Shown here in pieces: positions 14,679 through 26,662 of a stretch of DNA of 64,000 nucleotides; positions within the stretch are counted from its first letter, which is position 1, and each line of letters opens with the position of its first letter. A model generated the notes under the pieces. The model was not told the origin of the DNA. It saw only the letters and a program-made list of their open reading frames with translations, and searched no databases. A program made the position numbers and the translations under genes. This stretch comes from an uncultured Gemmatimonadales bacterium (GTDB taxonomy: Bacteria; Gemmatimonadota; Gemmatimonadetes; Gemmatimonadales; GWC2-71-9), in NCBI GenBank assembly GCA_963739455.1, contig CAVUAK010000001.1:1-64000 (forward strand). The letters are read 5' to 3'.

Positions 14679-16209
14679 ATGCCGAACCGTCTCGCGATCG
14701 CCGCGACTACGCTGGCCGTCCTGCTCGCTGCCGCGCATGCCCCGGTGCTGGTGGACTGGGTCATGGTGGCGAAGATCAGGGAGGAAGGGCTCCAACGCTC
14801 GCAGGTCATGGAGTATGAGGCCTACATGACCGACGTGCTGGGGGCCCGTCTTACCCTGTCCGAGGGGATGAAGCGCGCGCAGCAGTGGGTGGAGGGCGAA
14901 ATGACCCGGATCGGGCTGGTGAATGTCGCGGCGGAGCCGTTCATGGACTTCGGGGTGACGTGGGACAACGAGTTCGTCTCCCTCCACATGCTGGACCCCG
15001 ACTACGCGCCGATGGTGGGGTATCCGTTGTCGCACACGCCGAGTACGAATGGATCGCTGGTACTGCAGGCGGTCATCGCCGACGTGCAGGTGCGGGGCGA
15101 CCTGGCGAAGTATCACGGAACGCTCAAGGGCAAGGCGGTGCTGATGTCGCCGCCGGCCACCATCGACCTGACGCCACTGATTAATGGCGTCCCCCGGTTT
15201 ACTGACGCCGAACTCCGGGAGAAGGAACAGGTGGTGATCGCGCCGCGACGCCCGGCGCCGCCGGCCAAGAACCCGGAGCTCCTCACGGCGGAGGAGAAGA
15301 TTGCGTTCTACAAGGCGGAGGGCGCCGCGGTGGTGCTGCAGTGCGAGAGCGGCTGGCTGGGCGCGGTACGGGGATATTCCCGGCCGGGAGCGCGGACGGA
15401 TGGCTATGTCGCGCGCCGGCATCATGGCATCACCGGTCATCGTCGCGATCACGCCGGAGCACTACAACCGGATGTATCGCATCCTCCAGCGCGACATCCC
15501 GGTGAAGGTCCAGGTGGAGGTGCGGAACCGGGTCGGTACCGTGGTCGAGCAGGCGGTGAACATCGTGGGAGAGATTCCCGGCAGCGACCTCAAGGATGAA
15601 GTCGTGATGATCGGCGCGCACTTCGACACCTGGCAGGCGAGTCCCAACGCCAGCGACAACACGTCGGGTGTGGCGGTGGTGCTCGAGGCGGCTCGCATCC
15701 TGAAGGCGGTGGGTGCCACGCCGAGGCGCACGATCCGGATTGCGCTCTGGAGCGGCGAGGAGCAGGGATTGCTCGGGTCGCGGGCCTACGTTCGCCAGCA
15801 CTTCGGCAATCCGCGCGATACCGCGGTGGGAGCGAAGCCGGCCTATGAGAAGCTCTCGGTGTACTTCAACCAGGATTACGGCCCCGGCCGGTATCGCGGC
15901 ATTTACTTGCAGGGAAACGAGGGCGCGCGCGCGCAGCTTGCGGCCTGGATGGAGCCGTTCGCTGACTTCGGCATGATCGCGGTGTCGAACCAGGGCGTGG
16001 GCAGCACCGATCATGTGTCGTTCGATGAAGTGGGGTTGCCCGGCTTCCAGTTCCTGCAGGACAATGTGCCGGGCACGGGCGGACACACCAACCTCGATTT
16101 CTACGACACCATCCAGCGCGAAGACCTGATGAGAAACGCGGTGGTGATGGCGTCGTATGCCTGGCACGCCTCCATGGCCGACGCGCCTATGCCGCGAAAG
16201 CGGTTCTAG
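14679..16209 (+). CDS. M28/M20-clan metallopeptidase (frameshift near 15.4 kb)
   Basis: IGAHFDTW, ASDNTSG, LWSGEEQGLLGS, STDHVSF, HTNLD. Confidence 0.88.
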
Positions 16210-16625
16210 ACGGACCTTACCAGTCTCCAGAACTGATCCTCGCCGACGATCGTCACCTGGTGTCCCTTGGCGGCGAGGCGGCGGATCTCCATCAGCTTGA
16301 GCCCGCCAGCCTTACCAGCCACCTGCTGGGCGTTGGGGCGACCGCGCACCAGGACGTCGGTGGTCGGACCGGGACTGGCCTGAAAGCAGGGAAGCGTGTG
16401 CACGTCCTTGCTCCGCATCGGGCTCTTCACGTCGCCCCGGAGCAGCATCGCGATCAGCTGGCCCACCTGATACACGTCGTCACGCTGCTGCAACTTCCGG
16501 CCCCGCCCCAGGCGATCTCGGTCGGTGCCTGGAGCGGATTGAACGCGTCCGCGGTGACACCACGCCAACTGGCCTGATGGGTGGCGATGCCGAAGTCGCC
16601 AAGCTTGAGGGCCTCGCCGCGACGG
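16206..16625 (-). pseudogene. Remnant of Ser/Thr kinase with C-terminal BRCT-like domain
   Basis: LKLGDFGIA (DFG), DDVYQVG (subdomain IX), then TDVLVRG..K..AAKG..IVGEDQF (BRCT-like); N-lobe absent. Confidence 0.65.
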
Positions 16626-16739
16626 CTACAGAACGAGACTTGATTAGGAACAAATGCCAGACGACTGACAAGGTCGATCGTGATGATCACGGTCAGTTAC
16701 ACTATCCACCAGCTGGTGTCTGCAGTGGAGAGGCTTACG

Positions 16740-17339
16740 CTACTGCATCAGCCTGAACCAGTCTCGCATCGAGAGCTGCAGGCGGAGCACCTCATCCTCA
16801 GCCAAGGCTGTGCAGTGCGCGATTGGCCCCCGTAGCGTATTGAGGTTGGCCATTACTTTCTCGACTGCACGGCTGCTATTCAGGATGCCACCGAACAGGT
16901 CCCAACTGCTCTTGATTATCTCGCCGAGCTCCCCAAACGTCGTGAAATCTAGCGGTGCCGTTGAGCGAAGGGTGACCGCCGAATCGACTTCCTTCTGCAT
17001 TCGCTTGCCGACCTCATCCTTAATCACCTGCGGAATTCGCGCCTTGTCCCACCACTGGGCACCGTGAGCGGCTTGCAATGTCTCCGATATGAGTTGCCGG
17101 ATGGTCTTCTCGAGACAGTAGAACACCTCGTAGTGGGCTGCCATTGCGGCGGCCTCAGCGCGCACTGCCTCCTCAAACTGGGGGTAGTAATCATCATCCT
17201 TGTCCGCGACCTCGCCACGACCGCGGCCAAGGTTCACATTCAACTCGCCTTCAATGCGATTTAGGGTTGCTTCAGTCAACTGGGCATTCATCGCGAATAA
17301 CTTAACGCGATCAAGTGCCACACCGGCAGGCTCAGTCAT
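16740..17339 (-). CDS. Swt1-like HEPN domain protein
   Basis: FYCLEKTIRQLI, WW, LDFTTFGELGEII..WDLF, LNTLRGPIAHC (RxxxxH). Confidence 0.85.
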   Translation of the reverse strand: MTEPAGVALDRVKLFAMNAQLTEATLNRIEGELNVNLGRGRGEVADKDDDYYPQFEEAVRAEAAAMAAHYEVFYCLEKTIRQLISETLQAAHGAQWWDKARIPQVIKDEVGKRMQKEVDSAVTLRSTAPLDFTTFGELGEIIKSSWDLFGGILNSSRAVEKVMANLNTLRGPIAHCTALAEDEVLRLQLSMRDWFRLMQ

Positions 17340-17949
17340 GCAGAAGATGTTCCCTCAAACTCCGAAAGATTGCGTTGTAGACGTCGACATTCGTGCTAGT
17401 AGGCAGGTTGAGGGTGATCGAGTAGCCAAGTGTGAAGGCGCGCACGTCGGCACCCCCACGTCCCGCTTCCGTGTTTGGACCGGACAGGGCTCGCGGTGCT
17501 GCAAGTGCTACCGGCGCTGCACCGTCAAACCGGGCATGTGCTCGCAGTCGCTTCAGGGTCGCAAATGTCAGCTCGGCAACTCGATCATCCTTCTTGGCTC
17601 CCGTTACCTGAACAATCAGACCCTTCAGCTCCGAGTCACCTAGCCTGTGGGCGTATTCGTTCGCCTCGAACAGAGGACGGTACGCCATCCTCATCGCCTC
17701 AGCAATGGTATTTCCGGACGTCGCGTCGTTCCGCAAGCGATCATAAAGTGCGGTAGGCGTCCCATCTGAATTGAGAAAACCTAGCTTCTTCAGAAATGGC
17801 GGGATGGCGGCGCCCGTACCACCCCTAACCTGAAGCACAGTCTTCACAAAGTCACTCGTGAAGCGCGTGGGGGTGGCCGCCTGTTTGATCTTGCCCAGAG
17901 CCGTGTCGATCGTGCCAGGCGTAGATAGGTAAGGAAGTGTTGTCGCCAT
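17332..17949 (-). CDS. DUF5343-like protein
   Basis: LPY..PG.I..L.KI..A.TP.RFT, FLKKLGFLNSDGTPT.LY, C-terminal YSITLNLP.STNVDVYNAIFRSLREHL; 8-bp overlap with the HEPN gene. Confidence 0.8.
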   Translation of the reverse strand: MATTLPYLSTPGTIDTALGKIKQAATPTRFTSDFVKTVLQVRGGTGAAIPPFLKKLGFLNSDGTPTALYDRLRNDATSGNTIAEAMRMAYRPLFEANEYAHRLGDSELKGLIVQVTGAKKDDRVAELTFATLKRLRAHARFDGAAPVALAAPRALSGPNTEAGRGGADVRAFTLGYSITLNLPTSTNVDVYNAIFRSLREHLLHD

Positions 17950-18071
17950 CTGATTACCTGTTGGAAGGGACCGCAGTCCACATTTGTATTACCTCTGCGA
18001 ATGCCATGAGCAGCAGCACGCTGTTGCGCGACTCGTGGATGACCGACGAGACACCCGTGGCTTTGCCGCCT

Positions 18072-19895
18072 TCAGGAGACACCCGGTCGTCCAGCATCGA
18101 GAAAGGGTGGCTTCTCCGCCCCACCATCGATGAGCCGCCCGATAGACGAGCAATCCTCCAGGAACTTCCGCGCAGCAACAGTGAGATACTGCCAGCAGCT
18201 AAAGGTCGGTGCCTCACTGATTCGCAATAGCCGACGCGCCTCAGCCAAGTAGCGCCGCCCCTTTTGTTCATCACCTACCGCGTAGCTGGCCAATGCCAAG
18301 CACTGCTGGTAATTGGCGCCCGGAAGGCCGCCACCCTCGGCATCCATCGCAATCACCCTCGCAAAGAGCGAACGATCGGGTCGTCCGCTCGACCCCCAGT
18401 TCGCCGTAGCAAGATTGAAGGCGTTCTGAATTGTCAATTCACCCGAGTTGACCAGCACCCGTTCCGCGTCGTCGCAACGGCCCAAGCCGATAAGCGTCAT
18501 TGCAGTTACCGCGTCGCGCTGCCTCCGCTGCGACTCATCCAGCGAGATTGTATCCCCGGCACTGGAAAGGAGAGTGAGGCTCAGGTCGAGTTCACCGCGA
18601 GAGCGGCTCAGATGATTGGCCAGTGCCAATCGGTTCCCCCAGGACAAGTGTCTGATAGCCTGTGTATCAAGTATTGCAGGCAGTCGGCTGGGAGAAGCAG
18701 TTCGCAACAGATTCACGACTGTTATGAGACTTACCGCATCAATATCCTGAGAACGCAGCGCCCCGAGTGCATCCTCCGCCGCTTGGGCCCGATTATCGAG
18801 CTGCATATTCGCCTCGGCCCTCAGCAGGAATGCTTCAGGCTGTATGACACCAAGCGCGAGAGCCTTGTCGACATATGTTAGCGCCTCCTCTGGCTCGCGC
18901 TGGCGCGATTGAACACGCGCGAGCGCGAACATCACCTCCGCATCGGACGCGTGAGTCATGGCGATTCTTTCTAACCGTACCTTCACGGTTTCCAGTCCAT
19001 GAGTACGTACACGCTCGCGAACGTCACGCAAGTAGTCTAGCGCCCCCTCACGGTCCTCAGGATTCAGCTTGACCAGCTTATCCGTCAGAGATTGATACTC
19101 GCGAGCCAATCGACTGCGAGGCTTGTCACGTGTGAAGACGACTTGCTTCAACAACAAGAGGCTATCATAGCGGTGAACGATGTGCAAAGCAGCCTGCCTC
19201 GGAATTCGCAGGGCGCGCTCGAAAGTCTCTATACTTTGCTTAAGGATGTCCTCCTCATCATCCAAGTCGGGAACGTTGGACATCACGAACTCTAGCGTGA
19301 TCTGCTTATTTCGAGGATGCGCTTGTTCTGCTCGAATATCAGCGACAATCTTTGTGAGGCCACTTAGGTTCTGGTCATTCGGGAAAAAGAGAATGACGAC
19401 GGCATCCGGCAGCTGTCGCGTACAGATTCCAGCGACATCTGTGTGACCGGTGCGCGAGTCAATTAGAACGTAGTCCGGTGCGAGCACATCCTTCCATTGA
19501 GCCTTCATGTCCTCCAGCATGAGGTAGCCATCACGGTTGTGATATAGATCGAGCCAGTCAATCGCTCCCAGCTTTCGGGAATATGACTCGTCTCTCCTCC
19601 CAGCTGGCATGATCCATAGCCCGCCTCGATCTTTTGCTACGCCAGAGGCCTCGTAGAGGTAGTTCTCGACAGGCGCCGCTCGGCCTGTCTCGAGGAATTC
19701 ACTGACATAGTCAACGATGCCAAGGGTACTCTCTGTCGGCCTTGGGAGGGGAAGTGTATCGAGTCCAGGCGCCTCCAAGTCGAAGTCAACGAGCAAGACA
19801 CGTCGCCCCCGTTGTGCGAGTTCCACGCCCACATTTGCAAGCGCCATCGTTCGACCTACACCGCCCTTGAACGAGTAGAAGGTTATGACATACAT
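18072..19895 (-). CDS. KGGVGR-variant ParA/MinD-like ATPase with C-terminal TPRs
   Basis: ITFYSFKGGVGRTMALAN, VLLVDFDLEAPGL, DYVLIDSRTG; TPR-like helices in the C-terminal half. Confidence 0.88.
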   Translation of the reverse strand: MYVITFYSFKGGVGRTMALANVGVELAQRGRRVLLVDFDLEAPGLDTLPLPRPTESTLGIVDYVSEFLETGRAAPVENYLYEASGVAKDRGGLWIMPAGRRDESYSRKLGAIDWLDLYHNRDGYLMLEDMKAQWKDVLAPDYVLIDSRTGHTDVAGICTRQLPDAVVILFFPNDQNLSGLTKIVADIRAEQAHPRNKQITLEFVMSNVPDLDDEEDILKQSIETFERALRIPRQAALHIVHRYDSLLLLKQVVFTRDKPRSRLAREYQSLTDKLVKLNPEDREGALDYLRDVRERVRTHGLETVKVRLERIAMTHASDAEVMFALARVQSRQREPEEALTYVDKALALGVIQPEAFLLRAEANMQLDNRAQAAEDALGALRSQDIDAVSLITVVNLLRTASPSRLPAILDTQAIRHLSWGNRLALANHLSRSRGELDLSLTLLSSAGDTISLDESQRRQRDAVTAMTLIGLGRCDDAERVLVNSGELTIQNAFNLATANWGSSGRPDRSLFARVIAMDAEGGGLPGANYQQCLALASYAVGDEQKGRRYLAEARRLLRISEAPTFSCWQYLTVAARKFLEDCSSIGRLIDGGAEKPPFLDAGRPGVS

Positions 19896-19900
19896 GACCC

Positions 19901-20482
19901 TTATGCCGCCCTTCGGAGCACAAAGCCGCCTTGCGAGAGCTGGCTTTGGCGCTCCGGCGAGAGCGATCGGAAGACCGGCGAACTCGTGGCGCCGAGTTGA
20001 GCTTTCAGTGGAAGGGATGCACCGCCTTCAATGGCTTGCAGGATCTGAAGCACCGCTGGCACCATGAGCAACCGGAGGTAGCGGTCGTAGGCCAGATTTT
20101 GTATCAGTGCTCCCCGCTCCCACCTTGCCAGGGTGGCCTCACCTAGGCGCGTCAGGCGGGTAAAGTCGCTGCGGCTAAGCGAGTAAGACTGACGCAGTTC
20201 TACAATTTCGCTCGGCGTTAGCACACCCAAGTGGCGGCATACCGCCTCGTGCCGTGCGTCTTCCGCGTCTGCATCAGTGAATTCAAACCCGCAAGCAAGA
20301 CACTTGCGAATTGGGATGCGCGCGGAAAGTGTGACAGTGTCAGAGCCACTTCCGTAAACAAAGGGCTCCTCTATCACGGTTGATTCTATTTGTGCGAGTC
20401 CACACATGGCGCAGGTTAGAGGCGACTGCCCTTCCTGCTGGCGATGGCTGGACGGCCAATCACTATTGCGGTTCATATTCAC
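19901..20482 (-). CDS. MqsA/YgiT-type antitoxin (Zn ribbon + HTH) with C-terminal extension
   Basis: CAMC and CLAC pairs; LTPSEIVELRQSYSLSRSDF..LGEATLARWERG; GTGA overlap with the toxin gene. Confidence 0.85.
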   Translation of the reverse strand: MNMNRNSDWPSSHRQQEGQSPLTCAMCGLAQIESTVIEEPFVYGSGSDTVTLSARIPIRKCLACGFEFTDADAEDARHEAVCRHLGVLTPSEIVELRQSYSLSRSDFTRLTRLGEATLARWERGALIQNLAYDRYLRLLMVPAVLQILQAIEGGASLPLKAQLGATSSPVFRSLSPERQSQLSQGGFVLRRAA

Positions 20483-20838
20483 CTAGCCGAATCTGAGTAG
20501 TGAAAGCTCCGGCCAACGATCTTGCCGGCTCCTCCCAACTGCACCTTGATGTAGAGATCGGGTCGTCCGACCTGCAATCGGGCGAGTATCACCCAGGCAA
20601 TCGACCCTTTGGGCTGCTCCAACTCCATGACCTGCACAGGTGCTCCCGATTCCAACTGGTCAGCAATGAACTCCCAGGCCTGAGAATCCGTGAATGGCAA
20701 CCCGCTTTCTGGAGATGCCACCTGATGCGGAAACCAGCGGCACGGGTAAGTCGCATTCCTAGGTACAACCCGGCATTCCCGCTTCCTAGCGAGGATCGCG
20801 AGGTGTTTCCTATTCTCCTGTGTGGGATCATTTGACAT
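20479..20838 (-). CDS. MqsR-like (RelE-superfamily) toxin
   Basis: C-terminal LYIKVQL...SFH signature; directly upstream of an MqsA-like gene. Confidence 0.65.
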   Translation of the reverse strand: MSNDPTQENRKHLAILARKRECRVVPRNATYPCRWFPHQVASPESGLPFTDSQAWEFIADQLESGAPVQVMELEQPKGSIAWVILARLQVGRPDLYIKVQLGGAGKIVGRSFHYSDSAR

Positions 20839-20939
20839 CTATCAACATGACATCCTGACCAATTGACCTCCGAACAACGCGTTGACGCCTTAGTACTCTG
20901 CATTGCCCATCAGCTTATTGACCAAATGACGATACGTAA

Positions 20940-20953
20940 AGATCATATGATCT
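20940..20953. promoter_or_regulatory. Perfect 14-bp palindrome AGATCATATGATCT, candidate operator
   Basis: In the AT-rich region upstream of the toxin gene. Confidence 0.45.
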
Positions 20954-21000
20954 ATTGTTACATACCATACGTCTTTTGTTCGGTGAAGGTCATACAAGCA

Positions 21001-21034
21001 GAGCGGGGCGACCAGTCCCCTGATCGCCCCGCTC
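21001..21034 (-). terminator. Hairpin terminator after rplS
   Basis: GAGCGGGGCGA...TCGCCCCGCTC stem, T-rich tail on the minus strand. Confidence 0.7.
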
Positions 21035-21061
21035 TAATTCCCCGCCTGTCCACATCCAGCC

Positions 21062-21409
21062 TTACGCGTCCCGCTTCTCCCGGATGCGGGCAGCCTTGCC
21101 GCTCAGCGCGCGGAGGTAGTACAGCTTCGCGCGACGGACCCGACCGCGGCGCACCACCTCGATGGTCGCGATCGACGGGCTGTGGATCGGGAAGATGCGC
21201 TCGACACCAACGCCGGCGCTGACCTTCCGGACGGTGAAGTTCTCGCTGATCCCACCACCCCGCTTCGCGATGACGATGCCCTCGAACGCCTGGAGGCGCT
21301 CCTTGTCTCCCTCACGCACGCGCACCATGACGCGGATCGTGTCGCCGGCACCGAAACCCGGAATGTCGGTGCGCAGACCCTCGCGGCTCAGCTCAATCAT
21401 GTCCTGCAT
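21062..21409 (-). CDS. rplS: 50S ribosomal protein L19
   Basis: [41 protein letters not shown]. Confidence 0.97.
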
Positions 21410-21474
21410 GGTCGTATCCTCGTCTGGTGTTCTACTGGCAGAGGGCGAGTATGAGCGCGGAATGCGCTGATTCT

Positions 21475-22168
21475 TCACTCGCCGTGCTGGGCCCAAAGGT
21501 CAGGCCTCTGTTCCTTCGTCAACTCTTCAGACTTCTGGCGGCGCCAGGCGTCGATCTTCGCATGGTTGCCGCTCAACAACTCTTCCGGAACCTTCATCCC
21601 GCGATACTCAGGGGGCCGCGTGTAGCTCGGCGGACTGAGCAACCCATCGTAGTGCGAGTCGCTGCTGGCGGACTCGTGGTCGCCCAGGACTCCCGGGAGC
21701 AACCTCACCACGGCGTCGATGATGGCCAGCGCAGCCGGCTCACCACCCGTAAGGACGAAGTCTCCAAGAGACAGCTCCTCAGTCGCCAAACCCTCGGCCA
21801 CCCGCTGGTCCACGTCCTTGTAGTGGCCGCAGAGCAACGTCACCTGACTTTCGAGCGAGAGCCGGACCGCATCAGCGTGCCCGAACTTCTTCCCCCGGGC
21901 CGAGAGGAGGATCACGGGACCTGGTGCCCGACTACCTATGCGGACCCAGGCTCTCCACCGCCTCGAAGAACGGCTCCGGCTTCAGCACCATGCCTGCCCC
22001 ACCACCATATGCGTAGTCGTCTACCGTGTTGTGCTTGTCATGCGTGAAGTCGCGAAGCTGAACCAGCTTGAATTCGACCTTTCCCGACTGCACAGCCCTT
22101 CCCACGATGCTCGCGCCGAGCGCGGGCTCGCAACACTTCGGGGAAGAGGTGACGACGTCAATCCTCAA
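21475..22168 (-). CDS. trmD: tRNA (guanine-N1)-methyltransferase (apparent frameshifts)
   Basis: [51 protein letters not shown]. Confidence 0.93.
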
Positions 22169-24530: not shown

Positions 24531-24613
24531 TTTCGGACCCCTTCGCCGGGCGCCCCATCCCTCCTGGCCAATCGAACCTTGCCTTCCTGAGCGACACTCA
24601 ATACTGTGAATAC

Positions 24614-24868
24614 ATGAAAAATATCACAGTTACTGTGAGCGACGACCTTTATAAGGCCGCGCGACTCCGGGCCGCCGAGCGGCAGTCGACGGTGTCGGCG
24701 CTGGTGCGGGCGTTCCTGGAGCAGCTCACCAATGACGTGAGTGCGCACGAGCGGCTGAGGCTGGAACAGAACGAGATGATCGCGCGAATTCGCGCCGAGT
24801 ATCCCGGATTTGGTGCCGGGGACCGACTGTCTCGCGACGACATTCATCGGCGCGATGCGATTCGTTGA
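24614..24868 (+). CDS. VapB-like ribbon-helix-helix antitoxin
   Basis: MKNITVTVSDDLYKAARLRAAERQSTVSALVRAFL; overlaps the PIN gene; ACTGTGA/TCACAGT inverted repeats at 24603-24638. Confidence 0.85.
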   Translation: MKNITVTVSDDLYKAARLRAAERQSTVSALVRAFLEQLTNDVSAHERLRLEQNEMIARIRAEYPGFGAGDRLSRDDIHRRDAIR

Positions 24869-25262
24869 TACGAACGTCCTCCTCTACGCAGTCAGCTCGC
24901 GCCCCGAGGAAGCCCCCAAGGCCGAGCGGGCGCAGGCGCTCCTGAATGAGCCGGACCTGGGGATATCGGTCCAGGTGCTGCAGGAGTTCTACGTTCAGGC
25001 CACGCGATCCGGCGCACCGTCCCCCATCGGCCACGACGCAGCTGTGAGATTTATCAGGACGCTCGAGCGGCTTCCGCTTCAGGAACAAACTGCTTCCCTG
25101 ATGCATGCAGCATTCGCCACGCGCGCCCGCTACGGTATCAGCTACTGGGACGCCGCCATCGTGGAAGCGGCCCGGATGCTGGGTTGTCGTCAGGTGCTGA
25201 CTGAGGACCTGCAGCACGGGCAGGACTTCGCTGGGGTCCGGGTGGCGAACCCGTTCCTCTGA
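24855..25262 (+). CDS. PIN-domain toxin (VapC family)
   Basis: FVDTNVLLYA, QVLQEF, SYWDAAIVEAA, TEDLQHG..NPF. Confidence 0.92.
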   Translation: MRFVDTNVLLYAVSSRPEEAPKAERAQALLNEPDLGISVQVLQEFYVQATRSGAPSPIGHDAAVRFIRTLERLPLQEQTASLMHAAFATRARYGISYWDAAIVEAARMLGCRQVLTEDLQHGQDFAGVRVANPFL

Positions 25263-25283: not shown

Positions 25284-25322
25284 GATCCTTCGCTTTGGGG
25301 CTCAGGATGACTGGGGCGCTCA
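25284..25322 (+). repeat. REP-like half element / left direct repeat of the Fic cassette
   Basis: GATCCTTCG...GCTCAGGATGAC; 25298-25322 matches 26688-26712 at 24/25 nt. Confidence 0.7.
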
Positions 25323-25426
25323 ATCGCCACGGCGTCGCGAAACGAGATAAAGCGGACATTCACGCGGACATTACTGCGGAAGTAGCGCCGTTGCAGAATC
25401 TACTATCTGTTGCTATCATGTCACTT

Positions 25427-26662
25427 ATGGAAGACAACAAAGCGGACGTTATAGCGGACATTACTGTGCGTGATATCGGGGAATCCACCTCCCTCATGGA
25501 GCCCCTGCTCGTGTCGGATGCGGCAGCGCGGCGGGCGGCGCTGCCTGACCTCGCGCTTCAACTCGCCCAGGAGTCGGCGGCATTCCGCTCGAGCCTGCCG
25601 CCCGAAGTCGTCCGTTCGGTGGCCGACCTGGTGCGCGCGATGAACTGTTACTACAGCAACCTCATCGAGGGGCACAACACCCATCCCATCGATATCGAGC
25701 GGGCGCTTCAGAAGGACTATAGCGCGGATCCACGCAAGCGAGACCTGCAGATGGAAGCGACGGCACACGTCGCCGTCCAGAAGTGGATCGACGAGGGAGG
25801 TCTCAGGCATCGTGCAACGACCGCCGAGTCAATCATCGAGATCCACCGGCGATTCTACGAGGAACTGCCAGCGGACTTTCTCTGGGTGGACGATCACGAG
25901 AGTGGCGCTCGTCTCCGGGTTCATCCAGGACAACTCCGGAACCGGGATGTGCGAGTCGGGCGCCACGTCGCCATCAGTCCTGCAGCGGTTCCGAGATTCC
26001 TCGAGCGATTCGAACAGGGCTATGGCGGACTGGGTACCGCCGACCGTGTTCTGGCCGCCGCCGCCGCGCATCACCGATTGTTGTGGATCCACCCGTTCCT
26101 GGATGGCAATGGACGCGTCGCGCGGCTGATGACTCACGCCATGCTGCTCGACGCGCTCGACACCGGAGCCATCTGGTCGGTGGCCCGTGGCCTGGCCCGG
26201 AACGAGGCAGCGTACAAGGCACACCTTGCCGCCTGCGACTCACCGCGCCGAGGGGACCTCGATGGCCGCGGCAACCTGAGCGAGGAGGCCGTGGCGGAAT
26301 TCACCAGCTTCTTCCTGAAGACCTGCATCGACCAAGTGCGGTTCATGCGCCAGCTCATCGAGCCGGACCGACTCCGCAGCCGCATCCTGGGCTGGGCCAA
26401 TGAGGAGATCGCGACCGGAGCGCTCCCGGTAAAGTCGGGGCAGGTACTCGAGGCTGCGCTCTTTCGCGGGAGGCTCAAGCGCGGGGACATCGGCCCGCTG
26501 CTCGGCCTTACCGATCGCCAGTCGAGGCGAATTACCAGCGTCCTCCTGGACGCCGGCGTGCTTCAGTCGGATGGCCCCCGGGCGGTCCTTCGCCTCGCGT
26601 TCCCGGCGACGCTTGCCGCCCGCTGGATGCCGGGGCTTTTCCCCGAACAGTCCGAGTCGTGA
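25427..26662 (+). CDS. Fic-family protein with C-terminal HTH
   Basis: HPFLDGNGRVAR catalytic motif; SNLIEG inhibitory motif. Confidence 0.92.
   Translation: MEDNKADVIADITVRDIGESTSLMEPLLVSDAAARRAALPDLALQLAQESAAFRSSLPPEVVRSVADLVRAMNCYYSNLIEGHNTHPIDIERALQKDYSADPRKRDLQMEATAHVAVQKWIDEGGLRHRATTAESIIEIHRRFYEELPADFLWVDDHESGARLRVHPGQLRNRDVRVGRHVAISPAAVPRFLERFEQGYGGLGTADRVLAAAAAHHRLLWIHPFLDGNGRVARLMTHAMLLDALDTGAIWSVARGLARNEAAYKAHLAACDSPRRGDLDGRGNLSEEAVAEFTSFFLKTCIDQVRFMRQLIEPDRLRSRILGWANEEIATGALPVKSGQVLEAALFRGRLKRGDIGPLLGLTDRQSRRITSVLLDAGVLQSDGPRAVLRLAFPATLAARWMPGLFPEQSES

Follow-up and report, generated by a model that had tools for sequence, protein, structure and literature searches.

A five-gene island downstream of rplS in an uncultured Gemmatimonadales bacterium: a toxin–antitoxin–ParA triplet beside a DUF5343–HEPN pair

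We analysed a five-gene island (positions 16740–20838) in the first 64,000 nucleotides of contig CAVUAK010000001.1 (assembly GCA_963739455.1) from an uncultured Gemmatimonadales bacterium; this whole stretch is called the window below. An earlier note, made from the sequence alone, had proposed that the five genes form one new defence system, in which an ATPase with tetratricopeptide repeats (TPR) gates one or two RNase effectors. Our analyses indicate that the island is, very probably, composed of two independent modules sharing one site rather than of a single system. Genes 1 to 3 (module A) form a conserved operon coding for a toxin, an antitoxin and a ParA/MinD-type ATPase-TPR protein, and they fit the class of ternary toxin–antitoxin (TA)-ParA systems described from computational analysis in a preprint of October 2026 (Li, Burroughs, Aravind, bioRxiv 10.64898/2026.10.19.760177). 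Genes 4 and 5 (module B) code for a DUF5343 protein and a Swt1-type HEPN RNase. The island consists of two already-predicted defence candidates side by side.

Co-occurrence of the five genes

The genes and the spacer that separates the two modules are the following.

20479–20838, minus strand: gene 1, toxin, 119 amino acids, uninterrupted frame
19901–20482, minus strand: gene 2, antitoxin, 193 amino acids, uninterrupted frame
18072–19895, minus strand: gene 3, ATPase-TPR, 607 amino acids, uninterrupted frame
17950–18071: 122-bp spacer between the ATPase and DUF5343 genes, at the module boundary
17332–17949, minus strand: gene 4, DUF5343 protein, 205 amino acids, uninterrupted frame
16740–17339, minus strand: gene 5, Swt1-type HEPN RNase, 199 amino acids, uninterrupted frame

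The layout given in the earlier note, with five co-oriented genes free of frameshifts, was borne out, as were the GTGA overlap of the toxin and antitoxin genes, the 5-bp gap between the antitoxin and ATPase genes and the 8-bp overlap of the DUF5343 and HEPN genes. Its protein calls (MqsR-like, MqsA-like, KGGVGR ATPase-TPR, DUF5343 and Swt1-HEPN) all proved correct by structural or profile matches. The sole wide intergenic gap of the five-gene stretch, the 122 bp at the ATPase/DUF5343 junction, coincides with the module boundary.

Of 587 genome loci with ATPase relatives, we took the best 80, which span many phyla, and searched their flanks (up to 8 kb) using tblastn. MqsA-like antitoxin genes are found beside the KGGVGR ATPase gene in 80/80 loci, with a gap of at most 12 bp in 62 of them, and toxin genes in 76 (75 using hidden Markov models). 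DUF5343 or Swt1-HEPN genes, a second neighbour to be expected from the earlier note, are present in 0/80. Another small gene fills the toxin slot in three of the four loci with no toxin match; different small toxin-like genes precede the same antitoxin and ATPase genes in L108 (1188–1583), L110 (7051–7398) and L116 (443–805). No conserved fourth partner of the triplet was detected among the neighbours of the 80 loci. Setting aside the opposite-frame shadow of the triplet, the commonest other neighbour families occur in at most 11 of the 80 loci and are, by eye, housekeeping genes or shadow open reading frames (ORFs). The distribution of the triplet is patchy (9/351 genomes in one phylum sample). 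It is also found on plasmids, with five records at 80% cover or more, and two of the three examined have recognisable toxin and antitoxin genes. Some plasmid copies are near integrases.

Of 401 genomes from the phylum of the window, 18 have DUF5343. Among eight other strong DUF5343 loci, DUF5343 is followed by a Swt1-HEPN gene in seven and by a weak HepT-like gene in one; in L025 (773–1315) DUF5343 is paired with a HepT-like protein in place of Swt1-HEPN. No toxin, antitoxin or ATPase gene was present near any of the eight, in stretches of 10–17 kb of which two end 1–2 kb upstream at a contig end. Conversely, a strong DUF5343 match was obtained in 1 of 50 TA-ParA genomes searched (of the 80), on another contig. 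Because DUF5343 and HEPN genes are missing at all 80 ATPase loci and the ATPase gene at the eight other DUF5343 loci, we consider the island as two modules. The idea of a single system whose ATPase-TPR protein gates both RNases, which the common strand, the shared low GC and the intactness of all five genes might suggest, was rejected as a conserved unit on these counts and, with the 122-bp gap at the module boundary also speaking against it, is scarcely credible. Gating of the MqsR-like RNase by the ATPase-TPR protein is supported by the strict co-occurrence of their genes, unlike gating of the HEPN RNase.

Components of the triplet and their relation to known systems

Gene 1 codes for a divergent toxin with a predicted MqsR-type RNase fold. 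Its product has no Pfam, NCBIfam or PADLOC match, but the top structural match of its model (pLDDT 89) is Escherichia coli MqsR (3hi2_D; Z 8.4, root-mean-square deviation 2.8 over 87 residues), the next rows (Z 4.8) including many RelE-type proteins. A Foldseek search of the model against PDB and viral structures gave no match at E ≤ 0.001, and the toxin was not found in viral contigs. The family comprises 498 clusters at 50% identity, with two near-invariant motifs, Y96-x-K98 and R110-S-F-H113, whose residues Y96, K98, R110, S111, F112 and H113 are each shared by 161 or more of 163 relatives. Tyr81 and Lys56 are given as catalytic residues of MqsR in PMC9636575. Y96 is aligned with the YxK motif of MqsR and is plausibly, from this alignment, the counterpart of Tyr81. 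The toxin shares its fold and its YxK and SF motifs with E. coli MqsR, and the antitoxin its zinc ribbon and helix-turn-helix (HTH) domain with MqsA, whereas the identity is 9% in the structural match, His replaces Lys96, there is no clear Lys56, and the antitoxin tail of 50–60 residues and the constant third gene set the present operon apart.

By its sequence features, gene 2 codes for an MqsA-type antitoxin with an extra C-terminal tail. The protein scores 61.2 bits with TIGR03830, just under the cut-off of 61.8, and harbours a CxxC-CxxC zinc ribbon and an HTH domain, both complete and MqsA-like. Its profile matches E. coli MqsA across positions 12–132 only, and it extends 50–60 residues beyond the MqsA end, with a variable linker and then a conserved segment.

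19904–19978, minus strand: conserved antitoxin tail, residues 169–193, with F171...F187-x-L189 and an Ala-Ala end, after the variable linker

We aligned 74 antitoxins, one from the window and the others from 73 of 96 loci; filters on completeness or length had removed 21 loci, and L063, with a short tail, and L138, a duplicate, were dropped. F171, F187 and L189 are each 95% conserved, mean column conservation is 0.25 in the linker versus 0.43 in the tail, and the basic residues R172, R181 and R190 are conserved at 58%, 53% and 64%, respectively. Twenty-five of the tails end in AA, 13 in AS and 6 in VA. In the unfiltered set the strict tail pattern was matched in 72/96 loci. Chaperone-addiction (ChAD) tails similarly combine aromatic residues with Ala-Ala or Val-Ala ClpX degrons, as described in 10.1101/2024.02.24.581848. 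Three long-tailed MqsA relatives in the phylum of the window are followed by a SecB gene, not by a ParA gene; in that phylum L167, L175 and L176 are classical MqsR-MqsA-SecB operons of the toxin–antitoxin–chaperone (TAC) type. In two other loci (L163:71–1327 and L165:1474–2472), the MqsA-type HTH domain of this subfamily is fused to a HEPN_AbiU2 domain.

Upstream of the toxin gene we identified a palindrome that may be the operator of the antitoxin, with further copies.

20940–20953: palindrome AGATCATATGATCT, predicted antitoxin operator, core TCA(T/A)(A/T)TGA
20922–20929: second predicted operator copy, one mismatch, 21 bp from the first
20828–20835: third predicted operator copy, just inside the first toxin codons

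In 80 of 97 loci, from which the motif was itself derived, the core lies in the 221 bp preceding the toxin gene, compared with 21/5574 control windows. It is found twice or more in 33 of the 97 loci, and 30 of 36 intervals between copies are near 42, 52, 62 or 73 bp, i.e. at helical-turn spacing. In a separately found set from the phylum, the motif was detected at 8/10 ParA-linked loci, one of which is the window and another, L155, probably a duplicate of L080, versus 1/20 others. ATCATATGAT occurs once in this genome. The L165 fusion mentioned above still has two operator copies upstream.

Gene 3 codes for a ParA/MinD-type ATPase (residues 1 to about 277) followed by a TPR solenoid, with structural matches to the Soj/ParA/MinD fold and to a TPR superhelix. 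The model of the C-terminal part is all-helical, and its Pfam TPR matches are below cut-off. The replacement of a Walker A Lys by Arg, observed in the earlier note, concerns the second Lys of the motif (SFKGGVGRT), and the protein matches the KGGVGRT model NF047398 at 182 bits for a cut-off of 90. Among the 74 sequences the ATPase signature (Lys10, Arg15, DxD, Walker B and the Asn motif) is near-invariant: R15 is found in 73, and S8 at the start of Walker A as well as P43 and G44 after the sensor DxD (VDFDLEAPG) in all 74. The TPR part diverges twice as fast as the ParA part, with median identities of 29% and 58%, respectively. Mutual-information analyses of the 74 paired sequences were uninformative, with a top z of 7.9 lying below row-shuffled maxima of 7.5–9.3, and the Mantel correlations (r 0.74–0.82) indicate co-inheritance only. 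One ATPase-TPR protein (L073:8001–10850) is ~340 residues longer than usual. The ParA domain (residues 4–225), a KGGVGR domain in common, matches PDC-M28B of PADLOC (E 3e-39), but the match is restricted to the ATPase domain and no match to the partner PDC-M28A was detected among the five island proteins.

In all sequence features that we checked, the triplet fits subtype iii of the TA-ParA class. According to the main text of the preprint (10.64898/2026.10.19.760177), that class has ConB2 ParA proteins with a Walker A arginine and a PG motif, usually with C-terminal TPRs; Ser at the Walker A start is listed as a PriB2 feature. Six toxin types are described, including MqsR-MqsA, subtype iii combining a BECR toxin with an HTH antitoxin. 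The likeness extends to the association of a type II TA pair with a ParA-TPR fusion, the arginine, the PG after DxD and the conserved operon, in which a BECR toxin is paired with an HTH antitoxin. The differences are that the present toxin family has no Pfam match and that the preprint gives comparative predictions only, with ParA as activator. This exact toxin family may be listed in the supplements. A word search of the main text for operator, palindrome, degron or Clp gave nothing, and the antitoxin tail, the recurring palindromic operator and the ParA-linked gene-loss pattern described below were not found in the text searched. TAC systems (MqsRAC, HigBAC and CmdTAC) also combine an MqsR/MqsA-type pair, an aromatic antitoxin tail, often with an Ala-Ala end, and a third gene directly downstream, but here the third gene codes for a ParA ATPase-TPR protein instead of SecB, and addiction to ParA is inferred. 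Our literature searches found no experimental test of module A or module B, nothing relevant on KGGVGR, and nothing on a tripartite combination of TA, ATPase, MinD and phage.

Gene loss and the possible role of ParA

A toxin-centred set was collected, with 25 metagenome loci (18 with enough downstream DNA) and 19 genome loci, in at least 10 of which the genome had first been found via the ATPase. The antitoxin and ATPase genes are present in 18/18 metagenome loci with room. The 19 genome loci comprise 17 triplets, one locus reduced by deletion to a remnant that retains half the toxin, and one locus at a contig edge, so that all 17 with an intact toxin carry both partners. In an antitoxin-centred search, all seven loci with an intact toxin have the ATPase, and the five related antitoxin loci devoid of ATPase (L159 and L163–L166) are all devoid of toxin. 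No intact toxin without a ParA gene was seen among the informative toxin loci. When the TPR part is cut off and ParA kept, the toxin is intact in five of seven loci. The ParA domain is interrupted by an insertion in L117 alone, and the toxin of that locus lacks the otherwise invariant Tyr (n=1). Tandem toxin–antitoxin units precede a single TPR-truncated ParA gene in L104 (4566–8831, three units), L112 and L196.

We propose the following mechanism. The MqsR-fold RNase would be held by the antitoxin zinc ribbon, as in E. coli MqsRA, and the HTH domain would repress the operon at ATCATATGAT operators. The aromatic tail, often Ala-Ala-ended, would dock on the ParA domain and thereby be shielded from ClpXP, ParA playing the role that SecB has in TAC systems. 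On binding to a phage protein, the fast-evolving TPR part might change the nucleotide or dimer state of ParA so that the tail is released; destruction of the antitoxin would then leave the RNase to stop translation, i.e. abortive infection. A clpX gene is present in this genome, and SecB (PF02556) was not found in it at 84% completeness. That ParA guards the tail and that sensing by the TPR part releases it is, as a whole, about as probable as its contrary in our judgement. More tentatively, genes 1 to 3 could represent an 'ATPase-addicted' TA system, in which a ParA/MinD protein took over tail-holding from SecB and added nucleotide control and a swappable TPR sensor.

Several points weigh against this proposal. 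Binding of the tail to the ATPase is so far a prediction, and the main text of the preprint sets the TA-ParA theme apart from SecB systems (10.64898/2026.10.19.760177). The Ala-Ala end is not specific, as it is found in 6/17 MqsA-like antitoxins without ParA; the terminal F/W-x-hydrophobic motif is absent from 3/10 ParA-linked antitoxins of this phylum; and no third partner was recognised for the long-tailed antitoxins L170, L177, L178 and L180. The ATPase-centred searches were unable to find toxin loci without ParA, and such loci may be missing since the pair is useless alone. The toxin has no conserved counterpart of Lys56, in an alignment that is weak (hhalign probability 3%). Finally, no recurring defence gene family emerged, by eye, among the neighbours of the 80 loci.

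The strongest rival likewise has two modules, with ParA-TPR purely as an activator. The antitoxin would neutralise the toxin unaided, and sensing would trigger a ParA switch that remodels the complex and frees the toxin; the tail would be a handle pulled by ParA, perhaps an ATPase-stimulating peptide like those of ParB or MinE. The main text of the preprint takes this view of ParA as a switch unleashing the toxin (10.64898/2026.10.19.760177), and the conserved basic residues of the tail (R172, R181 and R190) and the complete zinc ribbon and HTH domain are consistent with it. It predicts harmless, lasting TA pairs without ParA, in contrast with the gene-loss pattern, and the single case of L117, where the toxin has lost the otherwise invariant Tyr and the ParA domain holds an insertion, does not favour it either. 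We hold it possible but rather unlikely.

It is less probable still that module A is not directed against phages and is a selfish addiction or stress module, whose ParA, HTH protein and phased repeats would form a small partition or positioning device. Repeated sites and a DNA-binding protein with a flexible tail do resemble the parts of type I partition systems, and the helical spacing of the operators and the plasmid copies near integrases agree with such a role. The fast-evolving TPR fusion, the Walker A arginine of an immune clade, the patchy distribution and the TIR-like effector gene at the same site in a relative (G006, below) argue for defence instead.

The DUF5343–HEPN pair and the rplS site

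The products of genes 4 and 5 match Pfam PF17278 (DUF5343, 9e-43) and PF18731 (HEPN_Swt1, 4e-14), and PADLOC PDC-M34A (6e-40) and PDC-M34B (6e-36), near full length, adjacent and in the same order. PDC-M34 is a predicted phage defence candidate in PADLOC. PDC systems are predictions (Payne et al., bioRxiv 10.1101/2024.01.29.577857), and the main text of that preprint does not mention PDC-M34. The PADLOC search proposed in the earlier note identified module B, gave no match for gene 1 and reached only the ATPase domain of gene 3. The statement that the island is not a named system applies to the five-gene combination, but not to its two parts.

In DUF5343 proteins, the N-terminal domain and a short C-terminal segment are conserved, and the linker between them is variable. 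The Rx4H motif of the gene 5 product, which the earlier note had pointed out, is intact (RGPIAH) and kept in 120/120 of the closest relatives among the matches listed. The intact HEPN motif and the coupled genes suggest that module B is a distinct HEPN RNase under the control of the DUF5343 protein, to which it is translationally coupled. Sequence searches gave no solved relative for DUF5343 or the gene 5 HEPN protein, an Atlas search with DUF5343 gave DUF5343 clusters only, and DUF5343 was not found in viral contigs or plasmids. Literature searches found nothing on PDC-M34, PDC-M28 or DUF5343, and those on Swt1/HEPN, at the level of listings, nothing on the DUF5343–HEPN pair.

Two features flank the island.

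21000–21035: GC-rich hairpin 3' of rplS, likely terminator, with 16-bp arms and a 4-nt loop, at the upstream edge of the variable site
16212–16690, minus strand: Ser/Thr kinase-BRCT gene relic, by tblastn to an intact 365-aa gene in L013

Both the likely rplS terminator and the broken kinase gene of the earlier note were recovered, and the AT-richness that it had reported by eye was confirmed by windowed computation: GC is 0.571 for 16740–20838 versus a genome mean of 0.669 (sd 0.018), and a single one of 877 genome windows of 4.1 kb is as low. GC at third codon positions is 0.61–0.69 in the island genes versus 0.81–0.87 in rplS, trmD and ffh. Positions 15500–22000 of the window were compared with 30 relatives at the DNA level. 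Matches were obtained on the rplS side, from ~21000 upward, on the peptidase side and in two kinase fragments; within the five genes, there was one 375-bp DUF5343 match located elsewhere in G026, one 30-bp match and nothing more. The island was horizontally acquired. Between the two flanks, relative G006 (95% identity at the peptidase gene) carries other cargo of low GC (L011:2711–7057), in which a 309-aa gene has a TIR-like/nucleoside deoxyribosyltransferase match. As relatives differ in cargo between the same flanks, the site downstream of rplS is a variable hotspot. The kinase relic, which aligns to residues 131–235 and 308–365 of the intact kinase-BRCT gene of a relative (L013:8726–9823, with a kinase domain matching PD-T4-6 models), is older cargo of the same site. 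No flanking direct repeats were found around the island, and a promoter and terminator scan of it remained at chance level. Among the sequencing runs listed, no RNA run holds this DNA, and one DNA run gave three short exact pieces. Beyond ffh, the window harbours, as read by eye, a small gene pair resembling an antitoxin and a PIN toxin (24551–25262) and a Fic-like gene (25295–26662).

As a combination, the five genes are a local pile-up without special weight. The TA-ParA triplet is compact and intact and occurs in many phyla, and the tail, the operator and the gene-loss pattern make the class-level TA-ParA prediction sharply and cheaply testable. If the pair is toxic without ParA, a ParA-family ATPase would act both as antitoxin guardian and as phage sensor. 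If true, TAC-style phage sensing would have a second, convergent route, at odds with the published activator-only model.

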